Of a stretch of 64,000 bases of DNA, positions 8,465 to 51,175 are shown piece by piece. Origin of the DNA: Minisyncoccota bacterium. GTDB taxonomy: Bacteria > Patescibacteriota > Minisyncoccia > Phycocordibacterales > Phycocordibacteraceae. A model generated the notes under the pieces. The model was not told the DNA's origin. It made no database searches and was given only the letters and a program-made list of their open reading frames with translations. The translations under genes were made by a program, and so were the position numbers. The stretch's first letter is position 1, and each line of letters begins with the position of its first letter. The stretch spans positions 356,930-420,929 of the forward strand of contig JAGORR010000001.1 in the NCBI GenBank assembly GCA_018062765.1. The letters are read 5' to 3'.

Positions 8465-8465
8465 T

Positions 8466-8738: not shown

Positions 8739-8786
8739 CTGTTTATAAGTACACATAGCCTGGCTCAGTACTGATACGCTAAACGT

Positions 8787-9689: not shown

Positions 9690-9705
9690 CTCATAGTGTA
9701 GGCGA

Positions 9706-9730
9706 AAAGACCCGCTCGGCGGGTCTTTTG
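9706..9730 (+). terminator. Intrinsic terminator AAAAGACCCGC-tcg-GCGGGTCTTTT
   Basis: Hairpin plus T-tract after paralog 4. Confidence 0.6.
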
Positions 9731-9783
9731 CTATCCCCGATTAGTACGTGCCATAGATGAGTGCGGATATATACTGAACAGTA

Positions 9784-10053: not shown

Positions 10054-10103
10054 AGAAGAAGGCCGCCGTCACCATCAGGTGCGGCGGCCTCAAGAGGAAA
10101 GAA

Positions 10104-10610
10104 CTAGTTCGGACCTTCTATCCAGTAATGGAAGACGAAGGGTTCTGCTGTAGAGCTTCGGATGCGAAATCCATCAGCAAACTCGCAGCCTTCTGCTGTC
10201 CAGTTGATCCAGGCTTCATGCACGTAGCACTGGGCCTCGTAGCCGCTCGTCTCTAGCACGTGAAGATCAGCGGCAGGGCAGTTTCTCGGCATCCAAAGCT
10301 CGGGAGCATGCGACCAGTCGTCTGGGGACGACTTGGCCGGAGCTATTCGCGCCTGGGGTCTCGTCTCGCCACTTGGCTTGCCGCAGATTGTTGGCACGTT
10401 TAAGCGCTCATCTTGAGACGAACTTCTGTAGCCACGCTCATTTGTAGCCTGCGTCGGATTCGATTCACCCCAAAACTGGAAGTGGTAGCCTAAGAATCCG
10501 AGCACGCTCAGAGCGATCGTAACCCAAAGCGCAATGTCCCACATGAAGGAATTGCCGCTCTTCTTCGCCTCACCAGGCGAGCCTGCTGAGGGTGTAGCGT
10601 GAGATGCCAC
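10104..10610 (-). CDS. Membrane-anchored hypothetical protein with a Cys-containing C-terminal domain
   Basis: 168 aa; one TM helix (WDIALWVTIALSVLGFLGY); directly downstream of the SPFH gene on the same strand. Confidence 0.4.
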   Translation of the reverse strand: MASHATPSAGSPGEAKKSGNSFMWDIALWVTIALSVLGFLGYHFQFWGESNPTQATNERGYRSSSQDERLNVPTICGKPSGETRPQARIAPAKSSPDDWSHAPELWMPRNCPAADLHVLETSGYEAQCYVHEAWINWTAEGCEFADGFRIRSSTAEPFVFHYWIEGPN

Positions 10611-10621
10611 AAGTTACTCCT

Positions 10622-11860
10622 TCAGATGTTCTTGGTTGCATTATGGCCGACAGCGGCGTCGAGAAGGCTGTTGCCGCTCGACTGCACGATGACCTTTTTT
10701 GCAGTCCCGCGCCGGGCTTGTACCCGGTCGAGAGCCTCGGTCAAGGTCATGATAGACTCCTTTGTTTTTTCAGAAGACTTTTCGGACGCCGCGACGAGCT
10801 TGAGCGCTTGCTCGAGTTCGGCATCGCTGTCCTTATCCTCGGCACGCTTCTCTGCGTCTTCCGCTGCGGCCTTGTTCTGTGCCAGTAGCATCACAGCATC
10901 TGGAGTGAGACGCGCGACGTTGAATCGCGTGATCTTAACACCAAGCTGCCGTACGTCACCGACACCGTTCGCAACCGCAGTGTTGAGGAAGAACTCAATC
11001 TCCTTCTCAACCTCGCGTTGCGCGGCGCGCTGCTCCTTCGCTTCGAGGCCCGCGCCTGCCTCAAGGAAGTAGGCTACGGGGTCGTCGATCGCTTTAAGCG
11101 TTCCGTCCTGAGTCTTCGCCTCGTAGTTCGTGGCAGTGATACCGAGACGTTTGATCTGCGCTTCGTCGACTTTCCCGCTTGCGTCGCGAGGAAGCTCAGC
11201 CATCTTGGTGTTCGCGATCATCGTGATGAGCTGAACGGATAGTGGAAGCTTGAGGAACAGGAACTGCTCCCAGGTATGGAAGAGTGCTGCACCACGCATG
11301 GCCTCCTTCGTCATGCCTTCAACGATGCTTCGGACGCCGTTCATGAGGCCGCTCTTGATCAACTCCTTCATGCGCTGAGGCCCGATCGGTCTTCCGCTGT
11401 CGTCCTTGGCTTCATGGTCTGGCTCGATCGTAAGATCGACCTTCACATCCACGGAACCGCCCGCGGTCTGTTTGCCCTCCTTGTCGGTCGCCTTGCAGGT
11501 GACCGAGAATGGGGCAAATTCGACATCGAGACGGGTTACGTCAATTGGTATCAGGCCGATTTCAAACGGCAGGTAGTCTGCCGTCATGTAGTCGCCTGGT
11601 CCGACGAGGATGTCCTGCGGTTCGCCATAGCAAGTCACCAAGGCGACATGCTGCGGCTTGGCAGAGACGTTCGTTTTCCAGCCCATCTTCACCATGAGGA
11701 TTCCGAGAGTGGCAAAGCTGACACCCATGAGGTAGTTCCCGTCGACTCGGTAGGCGAGAAACGCACAGAGCGCGCCGACCGCCATAAGTATGACGGCGAT
11801 GCGCCACAACTTCGAACTGAAGTCAGGACCGACTATGTATTGGCTTACAAGGTTCTTCAT
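10622..11860 (-). CDS. SPFH/band-7 (stomatin/flotillin-like) domain protein
   Basis: 412 aa; N-terminal TM helix, SPFH-like core and a Glu/Ala/Lys-rich coiled-coil C-terminus. Confidence 0.6.
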   Translation of the reverse strand: MKNLVSQYIVGPDFSSKLWRIAVILMAVGALCAFLAYRVDGNYLMGVSFATLGILMVKMGWKTNVSAKPQHVALVTCYGEPQDILVGPGDYMTADYLPFEIGLIPIDVTRLDVEFAPFSVTCKATDKEGKQTAGGSVDVKVDLTIEPDHEAKDDSGRPIGPQRMKELIKSGLMNGVRSIVEGMTKEAMRGAALFHTWEQFLFLKLPLSVQLITMIANTKMAELPRDASGKVDEAQIKRLGITATNYEAKTQDGTLKAIDDPVAYFLEAGAGLEAKEQRAAQREVEKEIEFFLNTAVANGVGDVRQLGVKITRFNVARLTPDAVMLLAQNKAAAEDAEKRAEDKDSDAELEQALKLVAASEKSSEKTKESIMTLTEALDRVQARRGTAKKVIVQSSGNSLLDAAVGHNATKNI

Positions 11861-12252: not shown

Positions 12253-12282
12253 CTCTGCGCCAGGCTTGTGTCTGGTTACGTG

Positions 12283-12364
12283 TGCTGGGGAGGAGACTTG
12301 AACTCCTAACCCGTGAGGGACATGGTCCTAAGCCATGCGCGTATACCAATTCCGCCACCCCAGC
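12283..12364 (-). tRNA. tRNA-Leu (anticodon TAG), class II with a long variable arm
   Basis: Manual fold: acceptor GCTGGGG/CCCCAGC, D stem GCG/CGC, anticodon stem CATGG/CCATG with loop CTTAGGA, T arm AGGAG-TTCAAGT-CTCCT, discriminator A. Confidence 0.8.
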
Positions 12365-12406
12365 GTCCTTCACAGAATACTACGATTTGTTATATTGCGT
12401 TCTGTC

Positions 12407-12479
12407 GCGCCTATAGCTCAGTTGGTAGAGCAGATCCCTCTTAAGGATAAGGTCCCTGGTTCGAGCCCAGGTAGGCGCA
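12407..12479 (+). tRNA. tRNA-Lys (anticodon CTT)
   Basis: Manual fold: acceptor GCGCCTA/TAGGCGC, D arm GCTC-AGTTGGTA-GAGC, anticodon loop CTCTTAA, T arm CCTGG-TTCGAGC-CCAGG. Confidence 0.85.
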
Positions 12480-12486
12480 CTAACAC

Positions 12487-12517
12487 GAAAAAGTCCTGGT
12501 CTGCACCAGGACTTTTC
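12487..12517 (+). terminator. Intrinsic terminator after tRNA-Lys (AAAAGTCCTGGT-ctgc-ACCAGGACTTTT)
   Basis: Perfect 12-bp stem plus U-tract. Confidence 0.65.
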
Positions 12518-12725
12518 GGTTAGTGCGCGACGGAACCATGTTTTGCGAGCGCGCAAAACCGGTGAGCCAGGGTCGTAGCCTGAAGTGAGTGTCGACGAGC
12601 TTCAGGGCTATGACCACGTGCGAGGCACAGCGATGTTTTGTCTGCAGATAAAACCACGAGCCGGGATAGCGGAATTTCATGAATAATGACTAATGAAATA
12701 TCCGTGACCACAAATTGCAAAACGT

Positions 12726-13562
12726 TTAGATACCAGCGTACTTTCTGAATCGTCCAATTAGGTCAGTCGTGAGGGTCCCTGGCTTACCGCTGCCTACCTT
12801 ACGGTCATCGATGCGGATGACCGGCACTACGTCCTTGAACGACGAGGTGATAAACACCTCATCAGCGTTCCAAACGTCGTCCATGCTGACTGCGCGCTCT
12901 TCGGTCTTGTAACCGGCTTCAGCCGCAAGCTCTAGGATGACCTTCCTGGTAATGCCATGCAATACGCCCTCCTTCGCCGTGATAACCACTTTGTCCTTCA
13001 CGATGAACGCGTTTGATGTCGAGCACTCGAGCATGTTGCCGTTTGCGTGGTACAGGATTTCGAGTGCGTTCGCGGCTCGTCGCTTAGGCTGTAGCATCAC
13101 CGCATTTATGTAATTGATGGTCTTGTACTCCGGCATCATGCGCTGGTGCTCGCTCGTGATGAGAGAAACGCCATCAGTAAACACTTCGGGCGCAAGCACA
13201 AATGCCGGCTCGCAATTTATGAAGAATGTCTCGCGTCCAGGAACGTGCTCAAGCCCTCCGAGCGCTTCTCCGCCAGTAAGAACGACACGTACGGTTGCGC
13301 GCGTATCTGGTGAGTTGCGCTTGGCGATCTCTATCAGGGCAGCCTCAAACGCGTCGCGCTCGATAGGAATGGTAAGGGAGAGGGCAGCCGCTGACTTCAG
13401 TAACCGCTGCCAGTGGTCTTCGAAGCGAAACGGCTTTCCGCCAATGACCGTAATGCCCTCATAGACACCGTAGGAGCGTAGGACGCCGAGATCGAGGATG
13501 CCCACCTTCGCCTCCTGAAGCGGAAGAAATGCCCCATTAAGAAAGGCGACAGGCTCGTTCAT
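12726..13562 (-). CDS. Aminotransferase class IV (branched-chain or D-amino-acid aminotransferase family)
   Basis: Fold-type IV PLP-enzyme-like sequence; start set at MNEPVAFLNG (13562), because the upstream part of the track ORF is antisense to tRNA-Leu(TAA). Confidence 0.6.
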   Translation of the reverse strand: MNEPVAFLNGAFLPLQEAKVGILDLGVLRSYGVYEGITVIGGKPFRFEDHWQRLLKSAAALSLTIPIERDAFEAALIEIAKRNSPDTRATVRVVLTGGEALGGLEHVPGRETFFINCEPAFVLAPEVFTDGVSLITSEHQRMMPEYKTINYINAVMLQPKRRAANALEILYHANGNMLECSTSNAFIVKDKVVITAKEGVLHGITRKVILELAAEAGYKTEERAVSMDDVWNADEVFITSSFKDVVPVIRIDDRKVGSGKPGTLTTDLIGRFRKYAGI

Positions 13563-13625
13563 CGGAGGATTATAACAGCAGTAATGTGTTATGGGTTTCT
13601 CGATATATGCTAGAACTAGTCGTAC

Positions 13626-13708
13626 GCCAGGGTGATGGAACGGTAGACATAGGGGACTTAAAATCCCCAGCTGTAACAAGCGTGTGGGTTCGACTCCCAC
13701 CCCTGGTA
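13626..13708 (+). tRNA. tRNA-Leu (anticodon TAA), class II
   Basis: Acceptor GCCAGGG/CCCTGGT (G1-U72), anticodon stem GGGGA/TCCCC with loop CTTAAAA, long variable arm, T arm GTGGG-TTCGACT-CCCAC. Confidence 0.8.
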
Positions 13709-13738
13709 CTCGGTAGGGCGTGATAGGATTCTGCCATC

Positions 13739-13810
13739 GGCCCGATGGTGAAGTGGTAACACGGGGGACTGCAAATCCTCTATGCGCGGGTTCAATTCCC
13801 GCTCGGGCCT
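13739..13810 (+). tRNA. tRNA-Cys (anticodon GCA)
   Basis: Acceptor GGCCCGA/TCGGGCC, anticodon loop CTGCAAA, T arm GCGGG-TTCAATT-CCCGC, discriminator U as is typical of tRNA-Cys. Confidence 0.8.
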
Positions 13811-13872
13811 CAAATTGGACGCGCAGCGTCTAATAGCGGGAATTGAAGGCCGTAGCTATATCGTGCGAGCAC

Positions 13873-22411: not shown

Positions 22412-23368
22412 ATGCGCCGCTTGGCACTTTACCTCCTCGCAGCTTCTCTCATACCGCTTGCCGCGGCGGCACAAGGGCTTCCGTCAGGCTCAATCATCCC
22501 GGACCTCGATGAGGGAGATCAGAACCTGCGCACGTGCGCTGCAGGTTGGAAGGCGGTTCTCATAATATCGGGAGGGTTCCTAGAGCTCGCAATTTACATC
22601 GCGATGCTTATCGCCGTTCTCGTTATCGTCTATGCAGGGATTATATTCCTGTTTAATGCGACAAACCCCGAGAACCTGTCGAAAGGGAAAAAGATTCTTG
22701 GAAACGCGGCGATTGGTCTTCTTATTACGCTTTGCGCATGGCTACTTGTGAATACGGTGCTCACAAGCCTGGGCGCAGGAGACATCGCAAGCCGCACAAG
22801 CGTCATAGGTTCAGGCGGCTCGCTCTGTATCACGATACAACCTCCGCAATCTCAAATACCAACCAGTCAGGAAGTAGCTGCCGGTTTGCCACTGGCACCA
22901 CCTCCTCGAGGTACCGGCTCGTGTGACCCGATTGCTGTGCGCGCAGCCGCAGCGGCCGGTGGGTACCAAATCTCGGAGCGAGAGGCGAACACATTTGCCT
23001 GCCTTGCAGGTCCCGAGAGCTCGTGCGGCGCAAATGTCGATGGTGCGACGACGCCTTCTGGGCAGCGTACGAGTGCAGCGGGTCCGTGGCAGAACATTCT
23101 TGGTTTTAAGGATAAGTGCCACTCACTCAACATCCCCGCCTGTGGCAACTTGCAGTGTCACCAGGCATTTTCAGGCGGAGTGGAGAAGTCTGATCCGGCC
23201 TCGAGAGCTCTCGCTGCCAAGTGTCGTCAGGCACTTGCAAACCTTACGTGCGCTGCCGCCGCAGCCGTGTGTCTTAATAACGCGAGCGGAAACGACTTCA
23301 GCGACTGGACTGCGGATTCGCGCAGCTCGAAACAGAAGAAGTGTATTCGCGACCATGCGGGGCTCTAG
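22412..23368 (+). CDS. Pilin-domain protein (TrbC/VirB2-like two-TM module) with a C-terminal Cys-rich extracellular domain
   Basis: 318 aa; signal peptide; TM-NPENLSKGKKIL-TM module like the paralogs at 8012 and 23928; about 200-aa C-terminal region with at least 14 Cys. Confidence 0.5.
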   Translation: MRRLALYLLAASLIPLAAAAQGLPSGSIIPDLDEGDQNLRTCAAGWKAVLIISGGFLELAIYIAMLIAVLVIVYAGIIFLFNATNPENLSKGKKILGNAAIGLLITLCAWLLVNTVLTSLGAGDIASRTSVIGSGGSLCITIQPPQSQIPTSQEVAAGLPLAPPPRGTGSCDPIAVRAAAAAGGYQISEREANTFACLAGPESSCGANVDGATTPSGQRTSAAGPWQNILGFKDKCHSLNIPACGNLQCHQAFSGGVEKSDPASRALAAKCRQALANLTCAAAAAVCLNNASGNDFSDWTADSRSSKQKKCIRDHAGL

Positions 23369-23383
23369 CGCTATACTTTACCT

Positions 23384-23926
23384 ATGAGCCGAACAGCCTT
23401 TTGGATACTCGCACTCGCATCGGTTGGGCTTTTGGCTGCTGGCACACTTTTCTATCTCAATTTGAATCCTGAGCCGGAAGCTCCTCCCATGGTAACTCCT
23501 GACCCATTTGGGAGTACTAACGATGGCGTAATTATTACGGCCGTGGGCGGGGAGGACATACGCGCTCGTGACTTCGTTAACGATGGCGAGACTGAACCTG
23601 ATCCCGGTAATCCCGGAACGTACTTCCTTGCCGGTTATTTCGGCTACTGCGACGGGGACGAGGAGTGTGAACCTATTGCAACAAGCGACTTCAACATTAA
23701 GTACGATAGCAAGATTGATGCCTTCACGATCGGTCTTGCCACCGAGCCGATAGGTGAAGTTAGGAAGCGTGCAGAAGCATTTCTAATGAAGAAGCTCGGG
23801 ATTGGGGAAAATGATATGTGTGCACTCAATTACTATGTCGGCACTTCGTATTGGGTAAATGAAACTTACTCGGGAGGTAATCTTGGGTGGAGTTTCTGTC
23901 CCGGCTCCATAGCACTTCCTGACTAG
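23384..23926 (+). CDS. Secreted/anchored hypothetical protein
   Basis: 180 aa; N-terminal hydrophobic signal/anchor; no recognisable domain. Confidence 0.4.
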   Translation: MSRTAFWILALASVGLLAAGTLFYLNLNPEPEAPPMVTPDPFGSTNDGVIITAVGGEDIRARDFVNDGETEPDPGNPGTYFLAGYFGYCDGDEECEPIATSDFNIKYDSKIDAFTIGLATEPIGEVRKRAEAFLMKKLGIGENDMCALNYYVGTSYWVNETYSGGNLGWSFCPGSIALPD

Positions 23927-23927
23927 T

Positions 23928-24839
23928 ATGCGACGTACTACGACATTGCTCCTGCTTCTCCCGTTGCTACTTACAGCTATGCCCGCGCATGCGCAGTTCA
24001 CCGAGGGCTGGACCATCGTCCCGGCAGCGTGCCATTCGTGCCCTGCGGCTTGGGTTTGCGTACTTGAGATGCTCAACAATCTGGTGACGCTCATCATGAC
24101 CATCGCGGTCTTAATCGTCGTACTCGTCATCACCTACGCCGGCATCCTGCTTGTGTTTACTGCGACGAACCCCGAGAACAAGAGCAAAGCAAAAAGCATG
24201 CTTATTAATGCTGCGGTAGGTCTCGTCATCGCTCTTGGCGCGTGGCTCATCATCGATAAGGTCCTCGAGTCTTTGGGTGCGGGCGGTATAGACGAGACAA
24301 CGCGCGTTATTGGTACCGGTGGCAGCGCATGTGTTGTTGCTCAGGATCCGATCACTGAGCCGCCTGAGGGAACGGATCCATCGCCTATTACTCCCGGTCC
24401 TGGCGGTGGAGGCAGCGGCGCTAATTGCCCGGTCCCGGCGGCGTCCGGGATGGTGGCATTCCCTGCGGAGGCTACAAGCGGTGAAACTGAATACGCAACA
24501 CCGAGTACGGTCGAGAACTTCCTTGCGATGCGCGCCGCAGCGCTTGCCGATGGAATTGACATTAAGGTGACTGACGGATATCGGTCCGAAGCCGAACAGG
24601 TTCAGTTATGGTATCGCTACAATCAGGACACGAGCCAAGTCGCAAGGCCGTGTACGCTAGGTGGCAGCGGTTCAAACCACAACTCAGGTGTCGCTCTGGA
24701 CCTCACCGTCGGCTGTAGAAAGACAGATAGTTCCTGTGATAGCGCCCAATACCGATGGCTTAAAGCAAATGGTTCTCAGTGGGGCTTCAACAACAATTTG
24801 CCTACCGATACGGTGCACTGGTCACCATCGGGTCGCTAG
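23928..24839 (+). CDS. Fusion of a pilin-type two-TM module with an M15 (VanY-like) D-Ala-D-Ala carboxypeptidase domain
   Basis: N-terminus TM-NPENKSKAKSML-TM; C-terminus contains ...DGYRSEAEQVQLW...SNHNSGVALDL, the hallmark Zn-peptidase M15 motifs (SxHxxGxAxD). Confidence 0.55.
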   Translation: MRRTTTLLLLLPLLLTAMPAHAQFTEGWTIVPAACHSCPAAWVCVLEMLNNLVTLIMTIAVLIVVLVITYAGILLVFTATNPENKSKAKSMLINAAVGLVIALGAWLIIDKVLESLGAGGIDETTRVIGTGGSACVVAQDPITEPPEGTDPSPITPGPGGGGSGANCPVPAASGMVAFPAEATSGETEYATPSTVENFLAMRAAALADGIDIKVTDGYRSEAEQVQLWYRYNQDTSQVARPCTLGGSGSNHNSGVALDLTVGCRKTDSSCDSAQYRWLKANGSQWGFNNNLPTDTVHWSPSGR

Positions 24840-39372: not shown

Positions 39373-39443
39373 TGGGGGGTCGTCTAATGGTAGGACAGAG
39401 GCCTTTGAAGCCTTTAATTTTGGTTCGACTCCAAGCCCCCCAG
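39373..39443 (+). tRNA. tRNA-Gln (anticodon TTG)
   Basis: Acceptor TGGGGGG/CCCCCCA, anticodon stem GAGGC/GCCTT with loop CTTTGAA, T arm TTTGG-TTCGACT-CCAAG, discriminator G. Confidence 0.8.
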
Positions 39444-39538
39444 CCAACTTGAGCGAGGTTCTTGCGTCCGAGACGCATTGAACTAAGCCAAGACTCCATT
39501 CAGAAAAGGCATACCGGCTGAGAGTCGCATTCAGAACG

Positions 39539-39563
39539 AAAAACCGCCCTAGGGCGGTTTTTC
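39539..39563 (+). terminator. Intrinsic terminator AAAAACCGCCC-ta-GGGCGGTTTTT
   Basis: Hairpin plus U-tract; a TATAAT-like -10 box at 39573-39578 precedes the next gene. Confidence 0.65.
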
Positions 39564-39585
39564 GTTTGCGCGTTATAATTGGATT

Positions 39586-40233
39586 ATGAAGGTTACGAAA
39601 TTCGCCCATTCCTGTCTCCTCATCGAAACCGATGAAGTTCGTATCCTTACCGATCTGGGCTCTTGGAATACTGGGGTTCCAGATATATCCGATCTCAATG
39701 CAGTTCTTATAACCCACGAACATGCGGATCATTTCGAGCCAGAGAAGCTCAAGGTTGTTCTAGAGAAGAACCCCGAAGCGAAGGTTATAACTCATGCGGC
39801 TGTAGGCTCGAAGCTCGAGGAAGTGGGAATCGCCTATACCACTATCGAGCCAGGGCAGAACATCGACGTAAACGACGTTTCTATTGAAAGCTACGGAACT
39901 GACCATGCGATTATCTACGGCGATACTTCACCTTGCCGCAACACGGGCTACCTCATTGCCGGAAAGCTATTTATTCCAGGTGATGCGCTTCATGATGTGC
40001 CACCAAAACAGGTTGAGATTCTTGCGCTCCCAACAGGGGGCCCATGGCTGAAGATCTCAGAAGCTATCGACTACGGTAAGGCAATAAAACCGAAGATTAC
40101 ATTTCCAATACACGACGCGATGTATACCGATGCATACAAGCAAACTAGTATTCCTCGCTGGATCGGGACGCAGCTTGAGGCGAACGGAACTAAGTTTATA
40201 AACATGGCGGATAACTCCACTGAAGAATTCTAG
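39586..40233 (+). CDS. MBL-fold metallo-hydrolase
   Basis: HEHADH metal-binding motif (H.H.DH). Confidence 0.7.
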   Translation: MKVTKFAHSCLLIETDEVRILTDLGSWNTGVPDISDLNAVLITHEHADHFEPEKLKVVLEKNPEAKVITHAAVGSKLEEVGIAYTTIEPGQNIDVNDVSIESYGTDHAIIYGDTSPCRNTGYLIAGKLFIPGDALHDVPPKQVEILALPTGGPWLKISEAIDYGKAIKPKITFPIHDAMYTDAYKQTSIPRWIGTQLEANGTKFINMADNSTEEF

Positions 40234-40384
40234 ACATGAAACTCTTTCTAGCTTCGTCAGCAGATAAGACTCTTTCAGAATTAGAAAAAGTTTGCCCTAA
40301 GATTGGGAAGAGGGTTCTATTCAGGAACCGCCCATAGGGGCCGCGTGTCTGGTACATCGGCGAAGGCTCGCTTAGAATGCACGA

Positions 40385-40783
40385 ATGGCGACAAAAGCGA
40401 CGATTCGTACTCCGGAAACAGAGGCCAGGTACGCGGCAGAGCGGAGCAGACGCCCTGCGGACTACGGGTGTCCTCTCTGTAAGGCAGAGACGGTGAAGGA
40501 TTTCACCCATTGGAGGATCGTGCGCAATGATTTCCCGTACGACCTTATTGCGAAGCAGCACGACATGATCCTCTCCAAGAGGCACGTGACGGAGCATGAG
40601 CTCACGGAGGAAGAGAAAGCAGAGTACGCGACTATCAAGGACGGATATGCCCAGGAGCAGGGATATAACTACATCGCTGAAGCGACGCATGACGCGAAAT
40701 CCGTACCTGCGCACCACCACGTACATCTCATAACGCTGCGGGACGATAACTGGGAGAGGATAGCTTCACCGGCAGTTCATTAA
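40385..40783 (+). CDS. Hypothetical protein, possibly HIT-like nucleotide hydrolase/transferase fold
   Basis: 132 aa; CPLC pair and a His-rich C-terminus (HHHVHL); assignment is weak. Confidence 0.3.
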   Translation: MATKATIRTPETEARYAAERSRRPADYGCPLCKAETVKDFTHWRIVRNDFPYDLIAKQHDMILSKRHVTEHELTEEEKAEYATIKDGYAQEQGYNYIAEATHDAKSVPAHHHVHLITLRDDNWERIASPAVH

Positions 40784-41963: not shown

Positions 41964-42296
41964 ATGAACATACTCATCCGTTGGCTGCTGTTCGCTCTCG
42001 CTATCTACGTATCTGCATATGTCGTGCCGGACGTGGAGACGACCGTGCCCGCCGCCTTCGTGCTCGCGATCGTACTGGGCCTCATCAATGCGTTCCTGAA
42101 GCCGATTCTCGTGCTTCTGACGCTCCCCATAACGATCGTCACGCTCGGTCTCTTCGCGCTCGTCCTCAACGCACTCCTCGTCATGCTCGCGGACGCCATC
42201 GTGCCTGGGTTCGAGACAGCTGGATTCATTTCAGCGCTCCTGTTCTCAATCGTGCTTGCGCTGGTCGGCTATGTACTGAAGCGCTTCGATGATTAA
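41964..42296 (+). CDS. Phage-holin-4-2 / DUF360 family membrane protein
   Basis: 110 aa; 3-4 TM helices; sequence pattern typical of the DUF360 family. Confidence 0.5.
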   Translation: MNILIRWLLFALAIYVSAYVVPDVETTVPAAFVLAIVLGLINAFLKPILVLLTLPITIVTLGLFALVLNALLVMLADAIVPGFETAGFISALLFSIVLALVGYVLKRFDD

Positions 42297-42902: not shown

Positions 42903-42989
42903 CATCGCGCGCCGCACGCTCTGTGCGGCGCGTTCCTTTATCCCTCATCGCGAGGCATGGTGCTCTACGCGTAGCCTATACTAGAGCGC

Positions 42990-45731
42990 ATGGAGGGAAC
43001 ACGGCAGCTTACGACTCCCGAGGAGGAGCTTGCCTACTTGCGTGCGCAAGTAGAGGAGAAAGAACGCGAGCTCGCGGGGCGCGCGCAGGAAGCACCGCGC
43101 AACACTCTCGTGCACGAGCGTATCCTTCATCACCGGCGCGAGATGCCAGAGACGGTGCTCGCTCCGTCCTACAAGCTACCTGAAGCTGAAGTGGAAGGCA
43201 TCGCGCTGGATCTCGATCCGGATGATAACGACGCAACGATGGCGGAACTTCAGGGAATCATGGAGGAGAAGGGTATCAAGAATGCGCTCTCGGTCCTTGA
43301 AAAGCTCCGGAATCCGCATCTCGATGACGACTTCCATCGATTCCTGGTGCAGTACGTCGTCGCTGGAATGCAGGTGAAGGGGCTCGGGGAACGGGAACCA
43401 GCATGGAAGGCGCTCCACATGACTCTCTACGAGGTCATCCTTCCGGAGCCCGGCAAGGACTCGGACGCGCGAGAGAAGACCTTGAAGGAACTCATCTCCT
43501 CGATGGAGCAGTTCTATGCAGGCATGCTCTCGGTGGGGGATGCGAGCGCGAGCGAGCCGGGCTATTTCTCGATGGAGCTCGCTGTTCCCGCTAATCGTCC
43601 GGAGCTCCTTTTCTATGTCGCTGTGCCTAACGGCAAGCGCGCGCTCTTTGAGCAGCAGCTCTTGGCAACCTTTCCGAACGCGAACATTCGTCCGCAGCCG
43701 AACGATTACAACATATTCAGCGAGGATGGCGTTGCCGTAGGCGCCTCTGCGACGCTAGCTGACAAAGGCGTGCTTCCTCTCAAGGATTATGCTGATTTCG
43801 ACTACGACCCGTTGAATACGGTTCTGGGTGCCTTCGCGAAGATCGAGAAGGCGAGCGAGGGAGCGGCGCTCCAAGTCATCATCGAGCGCGATACGCACCA
43901 CCTGGAACATTACCGCCGGATACTCGGAGCGCTCCGTCGCGGCGAATCGAAGGATCGTGCGCTCTCGATGCCGGAGACATTCGTGGGCGAGGCCGCGCGC
44001 GAGATCGGGTCAGCGCTCTTCCCGGGCTCACGCAAATGGGAGAACGAAGTTGAGAAGAGAGCCGAAAGGAAAGATGGGAACCAGGCTTTGATTGAGCAGA
44101 TAGAGAAGAAGATCGCAGCTCCCATCGTAAAGACGACGCTCCGTCTCATGGTGTCCTCGCCGACCCACACCCGCGCGGAGTCAGGGCTCGCGGACCTTGA
44201 GGCGGCATTCAATCAGTTCACCAACACCGTAGGCAACAAAATCAACTGGAATCGGTTCTCAGGCACCAAGGTACAGAGCCTTTTCCATGCATTCTCTTAC
44301 CGTTTGCCGGCGAAGGACGCGATACCGCTTTCTCTTCGAGAGGTCACGAGCCTCTACCACTTCCCGCCCGAGGGCATCAGCTCTACGCCGCAACTCCGGC
44401 AGTCGCGCTTCACTGCGGCCGCTGCGCCCTTGGATCTCCCTGACTCGGGGACGTATCTCGGGGATAACGAGTTCCGCGGACGGAAGACTGCGGCATTCCT
44501 GTCGCCGGAGGACCGCATGCGGCACCTCTATGTCGTCGGACAGACGGGAACCGGTAAGTCGGTATTCATGAGGAATCTCGCCATACAGGACATCAAGGCA
44601 GGGAACGGCGTCTGCTTCATCGACCCCCACGGGAACGACATCCTCGATATCCTCGCGGCTGTACCTCCCGAGAGATACGAGGATGTCATCTATTTCGATC
44701 CGGCGAACCTGGCGCGTCCGTTCGGCCTCAACTTGCTTGAATACGATGCGAGCCGCCCAGAGCAGAAAACCTTCATCGTTAATGAGATCCTCGCGATATT
44801 CCGCCGCCTCTACGGGGACGTGCCGGAGTCGATGGGTCCTGCGTTCGAGCAGTACTTCCGCAACTCAACCCTCCTGGTGATGGAGGACCCGGCATCGGGC
44901 TCGACCTTACTCGATATCGCGCGAGTCCTTTCGAACAAGGAGTTCCGCGACCTGAAACTCTCGCGAAGTAATAATCCGGTCATAAACCAGTTCTGGAACG
45001 AGATAGCGACGAAGGCTGAAGGAGAGGCATCGCTTCAAAACATCGTTCCGTACATCACTAACAAGTTCGATGACTTCACCGCGAACGACTTCATGCGGCC
45101 AATCGTCGGGCAGCAGGAATCCTCGTTCAAATTCCGTGAGGTGATGGACAACAAGAAGATACTCCTTGTGAACCTCTCTAAAGGAAGGCTCGGGGAACGA
45201 AACGCCAACCTCCTGGGCCTCATCCTCGTCGGGAAGATATTCATGGCTGCGCTCTCTCGTGCAGATAACCCGAGGGCAGACTACGCGCCGTTCTACCTCT
45301 ATATCGACGAATTCCAGAACATAACTACGGACTCCATACCGGGAATCCTCTCCGAGGCTCGCAAATACCGGCTTTCGCTTACCATGGCGCACCAGTTTCT
45401 GGCGCAGGTGGATGAGAAGGTGCGGGATGCCGTGTTCGGGAACGTCGGCTCCATGGCCGTGTTCCGCGTCGGCGAGGAAGATGGCGAGTACTTCGAGAAG
45501 CAGTTCGCGCCGGTGTTCTCCGCGCTCGATTTCGTGAACATAGAGAATTACAACGCGTACGTCAGACTCCTTGCGCGCGGCGTGCCGCAGAAGCCATTCA
45601 ATATAAAGACGCCGCCACCGGCCGCCACGAACCCTGCGCAGGTGGACGACCTCAGAGAGCTCTCAGCACTCGTCTACGGCCGCGACCGTACACAGGTGGA
45701 AAACCTTATCAGAAGCAGGTACATGTCATAA
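42990..45731 (+). CDS. Large P-loop NTPase, T4SS-type (VirB4/TraC/TraD-like) or HerA/DUF87-like, with an N-terminal ~480-aa domain of unknown function
   Basis: 913 aa; Walker A GQTGTGKSVF and Walker B LYIDEFQN in the C-terminal half; no N-terminal TM helices. Confidence 0.5.
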   Translation: MEGTRQLTTPEEELAYLRAQVEEKERELAGRAQEAPRNTLVHERILHHRREMPETVLAPSYKLPEAEVEGIALDLDPDDNDATMAELQGIMEEKGIKNALSVLEKLRNPHLDDDFHRFLVQYVVAGMQVKGLGEREPAWKALHMTLYEVILPEPGKDSDAREKTLKELISSMEQFYAGMLSVGDASASEPGYFSMELAVPANRPELLFYVAVPNGKRALFEQQLLATFPNANIRPQPNDYNIFSEDGVAVGASATLADKGVLPLKDYADFDYDPLNTVLGAFAKIEKASEGAALQVIIERDTHHLEHYRRILGALRRGESKDRALSMPETFVGEAAREIGSALFPGSRKWENEVEKRAERKDGNQALIEQIEKKIAAPIVKTTLRLMVSSPTHTRAESGLADLEAAFNQFTNTVGNKINWNRFSGTKVQSLFHAFSYRLPAKDAIPLSLREVTSLYHFPPEGISSTPQLRQSRFTAAAAPLDLPDSGTYLGDNEFRGRKTAAFLSPEDRMRHLYVVGQTGTGKSVFMRNLAIQDIKAGNGVCFIDPHGNDILDILAAVPPERYEDVIYFDPANLARPFGLNLLEYDASRPEQKTFIVNEILAIFRRLYGDVPESMGPAFEQYFRNSTLLVMEDPASGSTLLDIARVLSNKEFRDLKLSRSNNPVINQFWNEIATKAEGEASLQNIVPYITNKFDDFTANDFMRPIVGQQESSFKFREVMDNKKILLVNLSKGRLGERNANLLGLILVGKIFMAALSRADNPRADYAPFYLYIDEFQNITTDSIPGILSEARKYRLSLTMAHQFLAQVDEKVRDAVFGNVGSMAVFRVGEEDGEYFEKQFAPVFSALDFVNIENYNAYVRLLARGVPQKPFNIKTPPPAATNPAQVDDLRELSALVYGRDRTQVENLIRSRYMS

Positions 45732-45743
45732 TCACAGCTATAT

Positions 45744-48700
45744 ATGGCAGGCGAGGGTCCAGGAAACGGTAATGGCAGCAAGCTCGCGGAGCAGCTTGCG
45801 AAACTCGTCGAGCAGAAAGGCCTTCAAGGGATGGCAGTCGCTGATGCTGGTGAGGAACAGGTGCCTGCTCAAGTTGCCACCCCCGCTGTTGTTGAACAGC
45901 ATGAAGTGCCCGTTTCCAGCTACGATGAGGCAGCGGTCTCGAAAGCGCACAAGCGATTCACCGCGCTCATAAGGGGGCTTGAGAAACACCCCGAGATACA
46001 GGTACGTCCTGATGCGCTTGCGAGCCTGAAGACGGCATTCGATGCTATGGGTAAGGCAAAAGGCAGGCTGAAGGCTATGGATGACGCGAATGAAGTGAAT
46101 CACGAACGCCGTAAGAAACAGTTGGATATCATCCAGGCATCGTTTTCCGTGATATTCGGAGAAATCGGAAACGAAGTATCCGAAGGGCTGCGCCCGGTCG
46201 ATGGGACTGCGACAGGAAGGAACGAGGCCACTTCGCGCGACGAAGTGGATACGCGCTACTATCCGCTCGCAGATGAGATTTTCGCAAAGGGGTATAACCC
46301 GAATGAGCTCGAATCGTGGCGAAACATCGCTAAGCGAGTCAAAAGGCCGATTCCAGGAAAGCCTTACAACCCGGGGATATCGCTTACTGATCGCGAGATA
46401 CGCGCGGTTCGCGCCGAACTTGCCAAACTCGAGCAGAAGGACCCGATAGTGCTTCCGACTAAAGCTGCGTCAGAACCAGCACCGCAAGTGCCGCGCGAGC
46501 GGGCACGAAAGCCAAAGCGATCGGAAAAGGATCGCGAGTCACGCGCGATTCGCGATGAACCAAGCATATACGACTCACCTGGCCCGATGCGCCGTACCGA
46601 CATGGACCGCATTGATCCTGCGGTCGTATCAGGGGTAGTTGGAACGTTTGACACGAATGCTCCTGATACGGTTACGGAGCCTTCTGGAGCGGATGCCGCC
46701 TCTGAACTCGACGTCGAGCCTGCTATTCACGACAGCACGCCGAGGCTCCCTGCGGATAAGTTCAAGGATGCGACCCCGAAGAGCGTACGCGAGAGTCTGC
46801 GCCGTTCGATACTGAGTATCAAAGAGCTGCCGCCTACGGAAATGCCAGCCGGGGCTATCGATACCTTGCCGCCTGACCTCGGGTTGAGAACCACTACTCC
46901 CGCAAGAGCGGAAGCGCTGAGGTCCGTAGTCACCCCGCCCGGATCGATAGACACGCTTCCTCCGGTCATCGATACTGCGCCGCAAGCATCTGCAGCCCCA
47001 GAGCCTGTGCTGGTTGCGGAGGTAGATCCGGACGCCGCTGATGCGGCACTTGCGCACGCCGTGTTCCCGAGTGCGTCAACGGAAGGTGTAGCAAATCTTC
47101 CCGCAGTGGTGAATTCGGAAGCTACGCCTACATGGCAGCCGCTCTCGGAGCAAGGTCTCACGCAAGAAGAACTTGTGCATCGGCGTGCTGAGCGCCGTGT
47201 GCAGATTGGCGTCGAGGCTGGCCTTACACAGGAGCTTGGCGACATGTACAACGCACGCGAAGCGTACCTCACTGCGTACCGGGCATTTTATGCGAATAAC
47301 AACCTGGCTGCGCGCGCTGCAGTACAGGCAACGAATTCCACCGAGTGGCAGAACTTGAAGCGACTTGAGGCTGCCTCGGCGACAGCAAGCCTTGCATACC
47401 AGCAAGCACTCGAGCGTTCCGCGACGGAACGGCTAACGGCTAACGCGCCTGAGCGCGAGGCGCTGCTACGTGCAAAGGGAGAGGCCAGGTACCTACTTCT
47501 TGTCGGCGTCGGCTGGAATGCGCCGCGGTACGAAGACGGCCGGCTGATGTCTAAAGAGGACTACGTGAACCAGTACATGACGCAGTACCAGGGCCGCGTA
47601 CTCGATCGCTACATGTCTACTATTGCGTGGCGCGAAGTCACAGCCGGGAACGAGAACGCACGCATCGAGACTCGTGCGGAGGCGCTAGGAGCAAAACAAC
47701 GCAACGTCTTCGATAGGATGCGCTCGTTGGTCCAGGCAACGAACCAGGGACTCGAACGGACGCTTACTCCGACGGGCGCTCGCGCATTCCGTATCGTCGC
47801 AGCTGCGGGCGTCGGTACCGTGCTTGGCGGGTGGGCAGCAGGTGCGATGCGTGGTGCCTCGGTTATCGCAGGTATGCTCACTGGCTCCACCGCGGGTGCG
47901 GCAGCAGGCTCCTTGTTCCAGCGTCTCGTGGGTGCGCGCCGGGCAGCTGCCGTTGATACTGTGCGACACTCGCGTATCACAAGTGCCGCAGACTTAACAG
48001 CGGCAGCTGCTGCGTTCCGCAAGGGTGACGCTGCGCAAATAGCAGCTACGCGAAGGCGTTGGGAGATGGGCGTCGCGCTCGGCGTCGCCTTCCTTACGGC
48101 ACGTTCTATGCCGGGACTAGAGCCCGTCGTTACTAGCTCCCTTAGCGATTTGAGGCGCATCGGCGGAGAGATTATGGGAACAGGCGAGAGCGCCGGCGCG
48201 ACAGCGGCCGTACCCACTGGTGGCGAGTCAGCGTCGCCTTCGTCAGCGGTCACGGGAGGCGCTGGCGGCAGTGAAGGCCAGTCTGCGCCTGTCGCCGGGG
48301 GTGAGAGCGGTACGGGAAGCGGAGCACCAAGAGCAGGCGGTGAAGGCTCCGGGGGCGCAGCTCCGCTCGACTCATCCGTGCCGCCACCTGCGAACAATCC
48401 AGGCCCTGCGGGGAGTCCCTTCGGACGCATTCCGGTACCGACGGATTCCGTTCCGCAGGCGGACGCTATCGGGGGATTCGCTCGTGAGTCGGCGATAATC
48501 TCGGGCGGTAACGGAGGTGACGCCGTGTCGAGTGAAGGACTCGACGATATGCGCGCAGTTGCGGCCGAAGTGCGCGGCACCTCGACAGAATACGTGGCAC
48601 GTTCAGGTGACGGCGGCATTAAGCTCGTCGAAGGTCTCCAGCAGCAGCTTGCGCGCGAGGGCATCACTGAGACGACACCAGGCATTTCAGCTATGACGCG

Positions 48701-49547
48701 TGAGATAGCATCGGCTGATACGAATGCGGAAGCCGAGGCAGTCGCGAAGAAATACGGACTCTACAAGCCAGGGGTCACCGATGAGAGTGCAGCAATCGGT
48801 AAGGAAGCTCGAATCAGGATAGACGGAGAGAAGCTCGTGCTTACGGACGCAAAAGGCGAGGCAGTTTTCATAGACGAGAAGAATCCATATAGCGGAAAGA
48901 TGTTTGATAGCAATCCACCACCTCCTGTTCGTGAGATTCCACCGGAAACAAGGGCTTCCGGTGAACGCGTAGCTCCAAGTGAGGCGCCACCACCTGCTCA
49001 AAGAGAAGTAGTCTCGAGCGCAGGACAAGAGCAGATAGTTCCAAGAGAGGAGCCTCCTCGAGTAGCTGGTCAAACGAAGTCCTATTGGGACATGACAGAA
49101 GTCGAGAAGACGCAGCACCTGAACCGACTCTCGATAGCGGACGCGCGACAGGCACGTCTCGATTGGGAGGACTACGCACGTAAGTATGACGCGTATCTCG
49201 AAGAGGTGGCACGCGAGAGGGGAGTTCCTGCAGCCGCGGTTGTGGGAAGTGCTCCCGTCGCGTCCCCCGCTGCCATCGAACGCGATCTTCAACCGGTACG
49301 TGTAGACGCCTCACCAACGCCTGCGTCAGAACCTGCGCCTTCGGCGGCAAAACCCGCACCAGAGCCAGTTCGTCCTGTACCGTCTCCGGAAGGACCACCG
49401 CGCGATACCATTTCTACCGACGAAGCGATCCGTCAATTCGGCGATCCGCAGGCAGCGGCGTCACGAGGAGCAACGCCGACGCCAGCAGCGAGCGAGTCGA
49501 TAACCACGGACGAGGCTATTAACCAGCTTCGTGCGCAGAAGAAGTAA
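45744..49547 (+). CDS. Giant low-complexity protein (1267 aa; Ala/Glu/Pro/Gly-rich; central Gly-rich hydrophobic segment; Pro-rich C-terminus)
   Basis: Single uninterrupted ORF starting 13 nt after the ATPase gene; the internal antisense ORFs are GC-artefacts. Confidence 0.5.
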   Translation: MAGEGPGNGNGSKLAEQLAKLVEQKGLQGMAVADAGEEQVPAQVATPAVVEQHEVPVSSYDEAAVSKAHKRFTALIRGLEKHPEIQVRPDALASLKTAFDAMGKAKGRLKAMDDANEVNHERRKKQLDIIQASFSVIFGEIGNEVSEGLRPVDGTATGRNEATSRDEVDTRYYPLADEIFAKGYNPNELESWRNIAKRVKRPIPGKPYNPGISLTDREIRAVRAELAKLEQKDPIVLPTKAASEPAPQVPRERARKPKRSEKDRESRAIRDEPSIYDSPGPMRRTDMDRIDPAVVSGVVGTFDTNAPDTVTEPSGADAASELDVEPAIHDSTPRLPADKFKDATPKSVRESLRRSILSIKELPPTEMPAGAIDTLPPDLGLRTTTPARAEALRSVVTPPGSIDTLPPVIDTAPQASAAPEPVLVAEVDPDAADAALAHAVFPSASTEGVANLPAVVNSEATPTWQPLSEQGLTQEELVHRRAERRVQIGVEAGLTQELGDMYNAREAYLTAYRAFYANNNLAARAAVQATNSTEWQNLKRLEAASATASLAYQQALERSATERLTANAPEREALLRAKGEARYLLLVGVGWNAPRYEDGRLMSKEDYVNQYMTQYQGRVLDRYMSTIAWREVTAGNENARIETRAEALGAKQRNVFDRMRSLVQATNQGLERTLTPTGARAFRIVAAAGVGTVLGGWAAGAMRGASVIAGMLTGSTAGAAAGSLFQRLVGARRAAAVDTVRHSRITSAADLTAAAAAFRKGDAAQIAATRRRWEMGVALGVAFLTARSMPGLEPVVTSSLSDLRRIGGEIMGTGESAGATAAVPTGGESASPSSAVTGGAGGSEGQSAPVAGGESGTGSGAPRAGGEGSGGAAPLDSSVPPPANNPGPAGSPFGRIPVPTDSVPQADAIGGFARESAIISGGNGGDAVSSEGLDDMRAVAAEVRGTSTEYVARSGDGGIKLVEGLQQQLAREGITETTPGISAMTREIASADTNAEAEAVAKKYGLYKPGVTDESAAIGKEARIRIDGEKLVLTDAKGEAVFIDEKNPYSGKMFDSNPPPPVREIPPETRASGERVAPSEAPPPAQREVVSSAGQEQIVPREEPPRVAGQTKSYWDMTEVEKTQHLNRLSIADARQARLDWEDYARKYDAYLEEVARERGVPAAAVVGSAPVASPAAIERDLQPVRVDASPTPASEPAPSAAKPAPEPVRPVPSPEGPPRDTISTDEAIRQFGDPQAAASRGATPTPAASESITTDEAINQLRAQKK

Positions 49548-49574: not shown

Positions 49575-49859
49575 ATGGATACTCACACAAACGGAGCACT
49601 CGATATCGGCTCGCTTCCACCCGATGAGCAGGAGGAGGTTCTCCTTACTGCCGGAGACCTTATCATGAAGGAATCCCTAGTGCGGCTCGCGGAGCAGATG
49701 GATGATGCGACCGCAACCGAATTCGATGCGCTCCTCACTAAGGGCGCGAGCGAAGAAGAGATAGCAGCCTTCATACAGACTCGTGTGCCTGGTGCGGACG
49801 TTGCTATGAAGGGCTCCGTTGACGATGTGCAGGGTGCTATACTCGGGGACAAGCCTTAA
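49575..49859 (+). CDS. Small acidic hypothetical protein
   Basis: 94 aa; no recognisable domain. Confidence 0.35.
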   Translation: MDTHTNGALDIGSLPPDEQEEVLLTAGDLIMKESLVRLAEQMDDATATEFDALLTKGASEEEIAAFIQTRVPGADVAMKGSVDDVQGAILGDKP

Positions 49860-49871: not shown

Positions 49872-50363
49872 ATGAATGTCACTGGTACCGGAGTAGCTGT
49901 CGCCCTCGCGGTCGTCTTTGCTCTCGGATTCCTGTTCTTCGGCCCCGCCATACTTACTCCGTCAGCAGTCATTTCTCCCCCTGTCACTATGAATTCAGAA
50001 GAAAACCTAGCAGCTTACGCAGATGTGCTGCCGACCGAGCTCACCGTAACCGATCTGAGTGTCGGGGAAGGCGCTGAGGCTGCGAGCGGCGACCTTATCT
50101 CCGTGAATTACATAGGAGCGTTCCCGGATAACACGATATTCGATGCGTCCGCAAGCCACGGCGGCCCCTTCACGTTCCGTCTTGGCGTGGATTCAGTCAT
50201 CCAAGGATGGCAGAAGGGACTCGTCGGGATGAAGGAGGGAGGTACGCGTATCCTTATCATTCCACCCCATGAGGGATACGGACCTGACGGATACGGCTCC
50301 ATTCCGCCAAACGCGACGCTCATCTTCAAGGTCGAACTCGTAAAAGTTGAAAAAGCTCAGTAG
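49872..50363 (+). CDS. FKBP-type peptidyl-prolyl cis-trans isomerase (secreted or anchored)
   Basis: N-terminal hydrophobic segment; FKBP core GDLISVNYIG...IQGWQKGLVGMKEGG...ATLIFKVELV. Confidence 0.85.
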   Translation: MNVTGTGVAVALAVVFALGFLFFGPAILTPSAVISPPVTMNSEENLAAYADVLPTELTVTDLSVGEGAEAASGDLISVNYIGAFPDNTIFDASASHGGPFTFRLGVDSVIQGWQKGLVGMKEGGTRILIIPPHEGYGPDGYGSIPPNATLIFKVELVKVEKAQ

Positions 50364-50380: not shown

Positions 50381-50409
50381 AAAAGTAAGCGCCGGAGATT
50401 TCTCTCCGG
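50381..50409. terminator. Bidirectional terminator AAGCGCCGGAGA-tttct-CTCCGGCGCTT
   Basis: Hairpin between convergent genes. Confidence 0.55.
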
Positions 50410-50446
50410 CGCTTGTAGTTTCCCACGAAGGGATGGTTGTCTCGGT

Positions 50447-51175
50447 TCAGTCCCGGATGGGATCCTGATACCGCTGTTCGACCTGGACTAGGCGGCCGTT
50501 CGCTTCGACGTAGCCGACGAAGGACGGGCACCATTCTCCCATCGCGTCGAGCCAGATGTCGTTCTGGGCGAACCAGAACCGCGACATGGCGAGCCACATG
50601 CTGTTCTGCATGTCGTACCCATCCAACATCGTGTTGTACATCATCTGGTTGGAGAGCGACGGAATCACACTGCCCAAGAGGTAGGTGGCGCCATAGTCGG
50701 CACCAAACGCACTCCAGGCCTGGATTCCGCCGGCAACCACCGAGCCGATGGTCACGATGTTGCTCGTGTCGCGCTGGGACTTGGCCTTCAGCTGGAAGGC
50801 CTCGATGTGATCCGCCTGACGGCGGAGCTCAGCGAGCCACAGGCGCTGCAACTCGATGCGGCCACAGGCGCGCACCACCTGCGGGATGTGATACCGCAGG
50901 TCGCGTTCGCCGAACTGTTCTATCGCGTAGCGGGTCGACAGGAAGGTCTGACGACCCAAGTCGTCAGTCTTTTCGGTCAGAGGCGCGATGTTCGGGGGCA
51001 GATTGCCCTCGTAGTACATGCCACGACCATCGAGGTTCGCATGGATCGACGCGTTCTGGACGCGCGCTTCGAAGTCAGCCGTCCGTTCCAGTGGTGCGAT
51101 TCCCTGACGGGAAGCGCATGCGCTGAGCGGAACGACGATCGCCATGGCGAGTGCCACGGCACGGAAGATACGCAT
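50447..51175 (-). CDS. Lipoprotein, hypothetical (lipobox LSAC)
   Basis: 242 aa; signal peptide plus Cys; RBS GAGGAGGG; paralogous to the disrupted gene at 51370-51729. Confidence 0.6.
   Translation of the reverse strand: MRIFRAVALAMAIVVPLSACASRQGIAPLERTADFEARVQNASIHANLDGRGMYYEGNLPPNIAPLTEKTDDLGRQTFLSTRYAIEQFGERDLRYHIPQVVRACGRIELQRLWLAELRRQADHIEAFQLKAKSQRDTSNIVTIGSVVAGGIQAWSAFGADYGATYLLGSVIPSLSNQMMYNTMLDGYDMQNSMWLAMSRFWFAQNDIWLDAMGEWCPSFVGYVEANGRLVQVEQRYQDPIRD

Follow-up and report, generated by a model that had tools for sequence, protein, structure and literature searches.

A soluble homologue of type IV coupling proteins with a VirB4-like N-terminal domain, and a hyper-divergent predicted membrane protein encoded directly downstream of it, on a Paceibacteria chromosome

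We analyzed two adjacent genes in a 64,000-nucleotide (nt) stretch of DNA (the window) from a Minisyncoccota bacterium, contig JAGORR010000001.1. The locus sits on a Paceibacteria (candidate phyla radiation (CPR)/Patescibacteria) chromosome. The first gene encodes a 913-amino-acid (aa) ATPase and the second encodes a 1267-aa protein, which we call the giant protein. Judged from its sequence, the ATPase is a soluble, relaxase-less homologue of the type IV coupling proteins (T4CPs), and it is predicted to be catalytically intact. Where T4CPs usually have an N-terminal transmembrane (TM) domain (TMD), the structural model shows a cytoplasmic domain of ~480 aa that folds like the N-terminal domain of VirB4. 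By sequence comparison, the giant protein belongs to an uncharacterised, Pfam-less, and hyper-divergent family encoded directly 3′ of the ATPase. Our leading reading, held tentatively and falling a little short of probable, is that this TMD-less coupling ATPase is tethered to the membrane by its variable, N-in/C-out partner, by analogy with the arrangement proposed for TraJ-TraI of pIP501.

The two open reading frames (ORFs) described in an earlier note on this DNA were present as given, with 12 nt between them. Their positions, together with the parts of the ATPase, are as follows.

42990-45731, plus strand: ATPase gene, 913 aa (P0001)
42990-43409, plus strand: ATPase aa 1-140, N-terminal helical extension containing the conserved helix PEEELAYLR
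43410-44459, plus strand: ATPase aa 141-490, DUF8128 core, alpha/beta, fold of the VirB4 N-terminal domain
44460-45731, plus strand: ATPase aa 491-913, nucleotide-binding domain, Pfam DUF87 and TraG-D_C
44538-44561, plus strand: Walker A motif GQTGTGKS, aa 517-524
45297-45320, plus strand: Walker B motif LYIDEFQN, aa 770-777
45744-49547, plus strand: giant protein gene, 1267 aa (P0121, KBC38_00375), annotated as 'hypothetical protein'

Both Walker motifs had been recognized in the earlier note, and nearly all of their residues proved to be invariant in 79 homologues: G517, Q518, T519, G520, G522, and K523 in Walker A, and Y771, I772, D773, E774, F775, Q776, and N777 in Walker B. Long stretches of the C-terminal half are also invariant in these sequences. 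Between the two motifs lies an all-helical insertion (aa ~591-720), which may correspond to the all-alpha domain of TrwB; a helical insertion is present in VirB4 as well. The ATPase showed no TM segment, and there is no hydrophobic segment in aa 1-500.

The ~480-aa N-terminal region, which the earlier note had left without an assignment, folds as a separate domain (AlphaFold2 pLDDT 86, pTM 0.78). In a Foldseek comparison of the ATPase, full-length TrwK/VirB4 took the top rank, with ~900 aligned columns and an E-value of 2e-13. From this structure comparison, the region is therefore divided into the helical extension (aa 1-140) and a core like the VirB4 N-terminal domain (aa 141-490). The ATPase possesses both an N-terminal alpha/beta domain and a C-terminal ATPase domain of the VirB4 type. 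Its nucleotide-binding domain is also RecA-like and of the TrwB type, with both Walker motifs intact.

The sequence models gave a different picture from the fold. Two Pfam matches of the ATPase were above threshold but weak: DUF87 (aa 511-572) and TraG-D_C (aa 767-829; 23.4 bits versus a cut-off of 22). The score for T4SS-DNA_transf (T4SS, type IV secretion system) was 16.2 versus a cut-off of 20.1. The best NCBIfam matches were TraD and the VirD4-like CD1115, all far under their cut-offs, and the closest solved sequence was TrwB. Of the VirB4 models, TIGR00929 scored 14.3 bits versus a cut-off of 643, and CagE_TrbE_VirB (PF03135) was not matched; this model and DUF87 were among the checks that the earlier note had proposed. 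A precomputed match to PF26449 (DUF8128) is recorded for the identical protein P0001 and for most homologues. More than 1,500 homologues of the ATPase were found, the best 120 being 66-100% identical over the full length, and their database names include 'TraM recognition domain-containing' and 'type IV secretory system conjugative DNA transfer family protein', the latter being also the NCBI name of P0001. An exhaustive phmmer search with the N-terminal domain gave 891 representatives at E<=1e-3, among them full-length forms of 880-1120 aa and ~800-aa forms without the first ~140 residues.

The architecture of the ATPase is thus VirB4-like, and its sequence and context point to the coupling-protein lineage. 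We class it as a coupling-protein homologue that has no TMD and has kept an N-terminal domain of the VirB4 type. The context evidence comes from mobile elements. By tblastn, plasmid homologues were found in Shouchella (883 aa, with a match that starts at aa 192) and Embleya (812 aa, with 30% identity in the ATPase domain). Both occupy the slot of the coupling protein, beside replication-relaxation proteins and after separate VirB3/VirB4-like genes. In Bacillus phage G (L085, gp153-gp156), a six-TM VirB6-like protein, a small membrane protein, and the VirB4-like gp155 are followed by the homologue gp156. The domains of gp155 are P-loop_TraG/AAA_10, and gp156 matched aa 170-878 of the window ATPase at 2e-34. 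In phmmer searches, the window ATPase was tied to these slot-equivalent proteins at 3e-57 to 7e-25, and no tie was found to the VirB4-like ATPases that adjoin its plasmid and phage homologues. Furthermore, PHROG 5156, a family of unknown function, matched aa 144-907 at 8.6e-65.

A second arrangement was seen in Geobacillus phage TP-84 (L086) and plasmid pCLJ, in which a membrane protein of 126-133 aa overlaps the start of the homologue. The 126-aa protein of TP-84 gave sub-threshold matches to TrbC/VirB2 pilins; the pCLJ counterpart was examined for a hydrophobic segment alone. Both Firmicute phages, G and TP-84, hold T4SS-like gene sets.

These comparisons define likenesses and differences. 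gp156, PHROG 5156, and the plasmid-encoded ~800-aa 'DUF87/ATP-binding' proteins from Shouchella and Clostridium botulinum are homologous to the window ATPase over the DUF8128 core and the ATPase domain. In contrast to the window protein, the ~800-aa phage and plasmid homologues are without the extension of aa 1-140, stand among T4SS-like and relaxase genes on mobile elements, and have no giant partner downstream. VirB4 itself (TrwK of R388, PDB 7o42/8rtd; C-terminal domain, PDB 4ag5) is set apart from the window ATPase by the lack of a VirB4 model match, of a phmmer link, and of VirB3, VirB6, or VirB8 genes adjoining the ATPase gene in the window.

The earlier note, whose interpretation was supported in part, had also offered a HerA-type defence module. 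We rejected this, and regard a HerA-type anti-phage system or an independent DNA-translocation module as very unlikely. PADLOC models do match the protein; however, the matches span the ATPase domain alone, and the HerA ones reach no further than its P-loop region. In place of a HAS-barrel, the N-terminal part has a domain resembling that of VirB4. No nuclease (NurA), Sir2, or DUF4297 partner is encoded nearby, the neighbors being holin-like, PurE-like, FKBP, and TGT proteins. Unlike genes of defence islands, the ATPase gene stands in the same housekeeping surroundings in many genomes, at 61-79% identity. GC content is unremarkable.

The giant protein is rich in Ala, Gly, Pro, and Glu, and it can be divided as follows.

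45770-46946, plus strand: aa ~9-400, replaceable N-terminal region, predicted to be cytoplasmic
47238-48089, plus strand: aa 499-782, conserved module A, comprising a helical region, a Gly/Ala-rich TM hairpin, and a third TM (iterated hidden Markov model (HMM), 29 proteins)
47784-48131, plus strand: aa 681-796, three weakly hydrophobic segments (681-702, 704-726, and 773-796) with an Arg-rich loop between
48144-48434, plus strand: aa 801-897, Gly/Ser/Pro-rich linker, 26% Gly
48435-48878, plus strand: aa 898-1045, conserved module B, a globular domain of ~100-140 aa with an invariant G-x-G, predicted to be extracytoplasmic (34-37 proteins)
48879-49544, plus strand: aa 1046-1267, Pro-rich C-terminal tail, 14.9% Pro

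The composition and the Pro-rich tail were as described in the earlier note; the Gly-rich hydrophobic segment lies at aa 681-796 rather than at ~640-700. Across the family, Lys and Arg make up 21% of the flank before the TM region and 20.6% of the TM2-TM3 loop. Because of these K/R-rich stretches, an N-in/C-out topology is predicted, and the modules after the TM region would accordingly be outside the cell. Module B is sometimes duplicated in family members. By eye, it is loosely LysM-like in a beta-alpha-alpha-beta order, a likeness that we do not claim. The tail motif GQTKSYWDM...WEDY (module C) is common only to the closest relatives. No match for the window giant was found in Pfam, NCBIfam, PHROGs, or PADLOC. 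Among 43 members of the family, no significant Pfam domain was detected; two stray matches across the libraries, each in a single member, were not significant.

A word-indexed search of 5.8 billion proteins with the giant as the query returned only the protein itself and one relative, and a profile built from 30 sequences of modules A and B had a single match. Probably, low-complexity words filled the candidate list in these searches. Because the word-indexed searches failed, the family was gathered via synteny. The slot was measured between the ATPase and the FKBP gene downstream of it, which was possible in 60 loci. An insert of 1.4-4.4 kb directly after the ATPase was present in 48 loci, and in the other 12 the distance was below 600 bp. 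The insert is a single ORF of ~450-1350 aa, which usually starts 2-12 nt past the ATPase stop. By BLAST, 45 of the ORFs are connected in a single component, the window giant among them, and the HMM added four more. The synteny check suggested in the earlier note is thereby answered: a giant-family ORF stands directly after the ATPase in ~48 of 60 related loci.

In the closest relative, whose ATPase is 97% identical, an orthologous 1256-aa ORF occupies the same place between flanks of 87-90% DNA identity. The ratio of nonsynonymous to synonymous substitution rates (dN/dS) against this relative was 0.05-0.12 over module A, the TM segments, module B, and the tail (0.05-0.07 in module A and 0.05 in module B). 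The Gly/Ser linker gave 0.61, indicating relaxed constraint. The first ~400 codons could not be aligned at the DNA level, and a forced alignment gave 39% aa identity. No tandem repeats were found in the giant as a source of this variability. The N-terminal region thus looks like the product of cassette-like replacement rather than of gradual drift. In a comparison with a relative whose ATPase is 79% identical, the giant showed ~24% identity, TGT 83%, and FKBP 61%.

These data bear on two outcomes that the earlier note had named as fatal to its proposal, an assembly or frameshift (chimeric) artefact in the giant and an FtsK housekeeping paralogue as the ATPase. Both were rejected, and we give them practically no chance. 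In favor of an artefact, the giant is low-complexity and only two matches emerged from the large protein search. However, dN/dS values of 0.05-0.12 in the conserved modules show that the giant is genuine; in addition, the orthologous 1256-aa ORF occupies the same place in the relative, and large homologous ORFs come after the ATPase in dozens of genomes.

In the N-terminal region, nothing recurs except a short Pro motif of the form (D/G)(F/W)PP in the first 5-18 residues. PP within the first 25 aa was found in 27 of 49 family members versus a background of 7.6%; since the members are related, the nominal P-value overstates the enrichment. Such a protein, with a replaceable region joined to conserved modules, recalls polymorphic effectors. 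In this explanation, the giant or its variable N-terminal region would be cargo exported or displayed by the motor, and the conserved motifs and modules would serve as a recognition signal, like the XVIPCD and BID of VirD4 substrates. The short N-terminal motif and a conserved ~70-aa C-terminal domain in most members also agree with it. We consider it unlikely all the same. The conserved TM hairpin and the positive-inside pattern fit a resident membrane protein, the variable part is N-terminal and predicted to be cytoplasmic, no toxin or enzyme domain was found among the 43 members, and no immunity-like gene is evident.

We then considered whether the pairing of the ATPase and the giant is real. 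Across the ~1.4 Mb of loci that were fetched, modules A and B were confined to the position directly 3′ of the ATPase. When metagenome contigs were searched with a DNA motif from module B, 22 loci emerged, and the ATPase was upstream in 13 of the 14 independent loci with enough upstream sequence. In some genomes without the giant (L037, L070, L023, and L034), a mini-ORF of 46-163 aa follows directly past the ATPase stop. The mini-ORFs carry an N-terminal EGPP/EGSP motif and a 'TPxEWRxxLxxLI' helix, and the same helix is found ~65 aa before the TM region in one giant subfamily (L032, L035, L039, L041, L047, L051, and L052). They may be remnants or minimal adaptors. Their sequences hint that the cytoplasmic elements of the giant are what matters to the ATPase. 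For small ORFs after the ATPase in more distant relatives (L074, L077, L082, and L020/L058), neither a significant domain nor a link to the giant family was detected.

In the window, the pair is followed by two further genes, and the unit is flanked by hairpins.

42907-42933, plus strand: terminator-like hairpin, 12-bp stem, 3′ of the gene upstream of the ATPase; likely 5′ boundary of the transcription unit
49575-49859, plus strand: small acidic protein gene, 94 aa, sub-threshold DUF5663 match
49872-50363, plus strand: FKBP-type prolyl isomerase gene, 163 aa, N-terminal hydrophobic anchor; last gene of the unit
50387-50414, no strand assigned: hairpin, 12-bp stem, between the convergent FKBP gene and a minus-strand ORF (50447-51175); likely 3′ boundary

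Because the gaps between the four genes are only 12, 27, and 12 nt and strong hairpins stand at both ends, the sequence suggests that the ATPase, the giant, the DUF5663-like protein, and the membrane-anchored FKBP are encoded on one hairpin-bounded transcript. The 94-aa protein scored 16.6 bits for DUF5663 (PF18908) versus a gathering cut-off of 23.7. Its positional orthologues in L002 (weakly), L003, and L110 matched the family, and a ~100-aa orthologue comes after the giant in most loci.

In the tethering reading, the ATPase would assemble into a ring-shaped motor on the cytoplasmic side of the membrane, where the downstream N-in/C-out giant would hold it. The giant would offer docking elements to the cytoplasm, namely its short Pro motif near the N-terminus, helical module A, and the TM hairpin, comparable to VirB3 and the VirB8 tails on the VirB4 N-terminal domain and to the proposed TraI anchor of TraJ. 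The linker, the conserved ~100-aa domain, and the Pro-rich tail would be projected to the cell surface, and the co-transcribed, anchored FKBP could aid the folding of these surface parts; the motor would in this way be connected with the surface. ATP hydrolysis would be coupled to the delivery of a substrate, protein or DNA, either to the T4SS encoded elsewhere in the genome or through the giant. The giant would then be an accessory, lineage-variable adaptor and not an obligatory subunit.

Several observations weigh against this reading. The 12 of 60 loci without a giant keep an intact ATPase, and the whole clade of ATPase relatives at 51-55% identity has unrelated neighbors and no giant. The sole exception among the 14 metagenome loci, L110 (Ga0208375_1003490), has a giant without the ATPase. 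The window giant itself is not typical: its TM segments are weakly hydrophobic (maximum Kyte-Doolittle value, 1.58), it has EGP instead of the PP motif, and it is without the ~70-aa C-terminal domain common to most members. The order holin-like/ATPase/giant/DUF5663/FKBP/TGT/UvrB/HisKA/response regulator/UvrA is collinear throughout the clade. Since the whole neighborhood is collinear, the adjacency of the ATPase and the giant is weak evidence on its own. VirB4, VirB6, and relaxase genes were not found in the 64-kb window. The organism has a T4SS, as the window holds T4SS pilin genes (8787-9686 and 22412-24836), and no tie was seen between these genes and the ATPase-giant operon. Finally, a t4cp homologue of a Saccharimonadia strain, which may be of another subfamily, is reported to be non-essential for epibiotic growth (PMC12102498).

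Some of these points would be expected if the two genes were merely collinear. The ATPase would then serve as the coupling protein of the Patescibacteria T4SS encoded elsewhere, or would have been exapted for another task. The giant would be unrelated to it, a fast-evolving protein of the envelope or surface that might, for instance, contact the host or span the cell wall and be folded with the help of the FKBP; the two would share a transcript and not interact. We think this possible, if on balance doubtful. The conserved gene order, which reaches far past the pair, the ATPase genes without a giant, and L110, with its giant-DUF5663-FKBP set, agree with it, and the linkage of giant, DUF5663, and FKBP is more faithful than that of ATPase and giant. 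On the other hand, in most loci the start of the giant lies 2-12 nt past the ATPase stop, the ATPase is upstream in all but one of the 14 independent metagenome loci, the truncated mini-ORFs that persist directly after the ATPase carry the cytoplasmic motifs alone, and the ATPase has no membrane anchor of its own.

As to L110, the region 6297-10774 contains an 853-aa giant-family gene, followed by DUF5663, FKBP, and TGT genes. A gene for a PP2C-like phosphatase lies upstream.

A bolder proposal, which we regard as improbable, is that Paceibacteria have here a self-contained surface module, made of the ATPase and the giant and independent of a T4SS. The coupling ATPase, with its VirB4 architecture, would dock on this single N-in/C-out protein and use ATP to remodel, extend, or export parts of the hypervariable giant, or a substrate passed along it, at the site of host contact. 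Such a module would be a minimal descendant of a conjugation machinery, made of a motor and one variable connector, and the replacement of the N-terminal region would reflect an arms race or partner specificity.

For the tethering reading, there are precedents. TMD-less T4CPs that rely on a neighboring membrane protein have been described, namely TraJ-TraI of pIP501 and TraG-TraJ of IncH plasmids (PMC7434980, PMC12857230). As in TraJ-TraI, a soluble VirD4-class ATPase with intact Walker motifs is encoded beside a membrane protein with a TM hairpin, and the helical insertion in the ATPase domain may be a further likeness. The window locus differs in having no relaxase, origin of transfer (oriT), or T4SS gene nearby, and its highly conserved ATPase is chromosomal and carries the 480-aa VirB4-like N-terminal domain. 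Moreover, its partner is encoded downstream, is 450-1350 aa in length versus ~100-200 aa, and is hypervariable with a large predicted extracellular part.

In Patescibacteria, 5,713 T4CP homologues in 2,918 genomes have been reported, only 148 of them near virB4 (Quinonero-Coronel et al. 2025, PMC12102498). Orphan, relaxase-less T4CP homologues of Patescibacteria are thus already published, and the survey leaves their function open. The passages considered here make no mention of a DUF8128/VirB4-like N-terminal domain, of the absence of a TMD, or of the giant family and its operon (PMC12102498). DUF8128 is a catalogued Pfam family, and a full-text literature search gave no paper for 'PF26449' or 'DUF8128'. 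We found no published description of the VirB4-type fold of DUF8128, of the TMD-less architecture in this lineage, or of the giant family, its operon, and the pairing. The motor is thus of a known kind with an unusual N-terminal domain, and the giant family and the pairing seem not to have been described before.

These results give the question of the orphan T4CPs a concrete, testable form, with one large TMD-less subfamily and a specific protein pair. A VirB4-like N-terminal domain on this ATPase bears on the divergence of VirB4 and the coupling proteins. In one clade, the ATPase appears to be transcribed with a rapidly diversifying protein of predicted N-in/C-out topology and an extracytoplasmic foldase. 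Should the two proteins of the pair interact, the giant family would become a candidate for a specificity component of the epibiotic lifestyle that is exposed at the surface, and it would offer a handle on what the orphan motors move.

The neighbors of the locus are housekeeping genes: GyrA, IF2, ClpB, TopA, SerRS, TGT, UvrB, and UvrA. With these neighbors, no GC anomaly, and no close relatives in IMG/VR, an origin from a prophage or another mobile element was rejected. A 110-aa, four-TM 'Phage_holin_4_2' protein (PF04020, 2e-29) is encoded at 41964-42296. Such a gene lies on the same strand within 2.5 kb 5′ of the ATPase in 51 of the 73 loci with enough upstream sequence, and in relatives the distance is often just 55-70 nt. 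In the window, a PurE-like gene and the terminator-like hairpin stand between them.

The T4SS_pilin (PF18895) domain occurs in four window genes (8787-9212, 9300-9686, 22412-23365, and 23928-24836). They encode two small pilins, a 318-aa fusion, and a 303-aa fusion of a pilin with VanY (D-Ala-D-Ala carboxypeptidase). A 412-aa multi-TM ORF without a Pfam match (10625-11860, minus strand) adjoins the first pilin pair.

Eight tRNA genes were found in the window (12282-13811, 22240, 28116, 39373, and 63914): three for Leu and one each for Lys, Cys, Trp, Gln, and Ala. The tRNA-Gln gene (39373-39446) is directly upstream of a ~1-kb tract (39537-40536) that includes a metallo-beta-lactamase (MBL)-fold gene (39586-40233). 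The DNA of this tract is 99-100% identical to that of the relative L001, with a synonymous divergence (dS) of ~0 in the gene, compared with 80-92% DNA identity and dS of 0.4-1.2 in the remaining region common to both. The tract, at which the L001 sequence ends, looks like a recent recombination between the two lineages.

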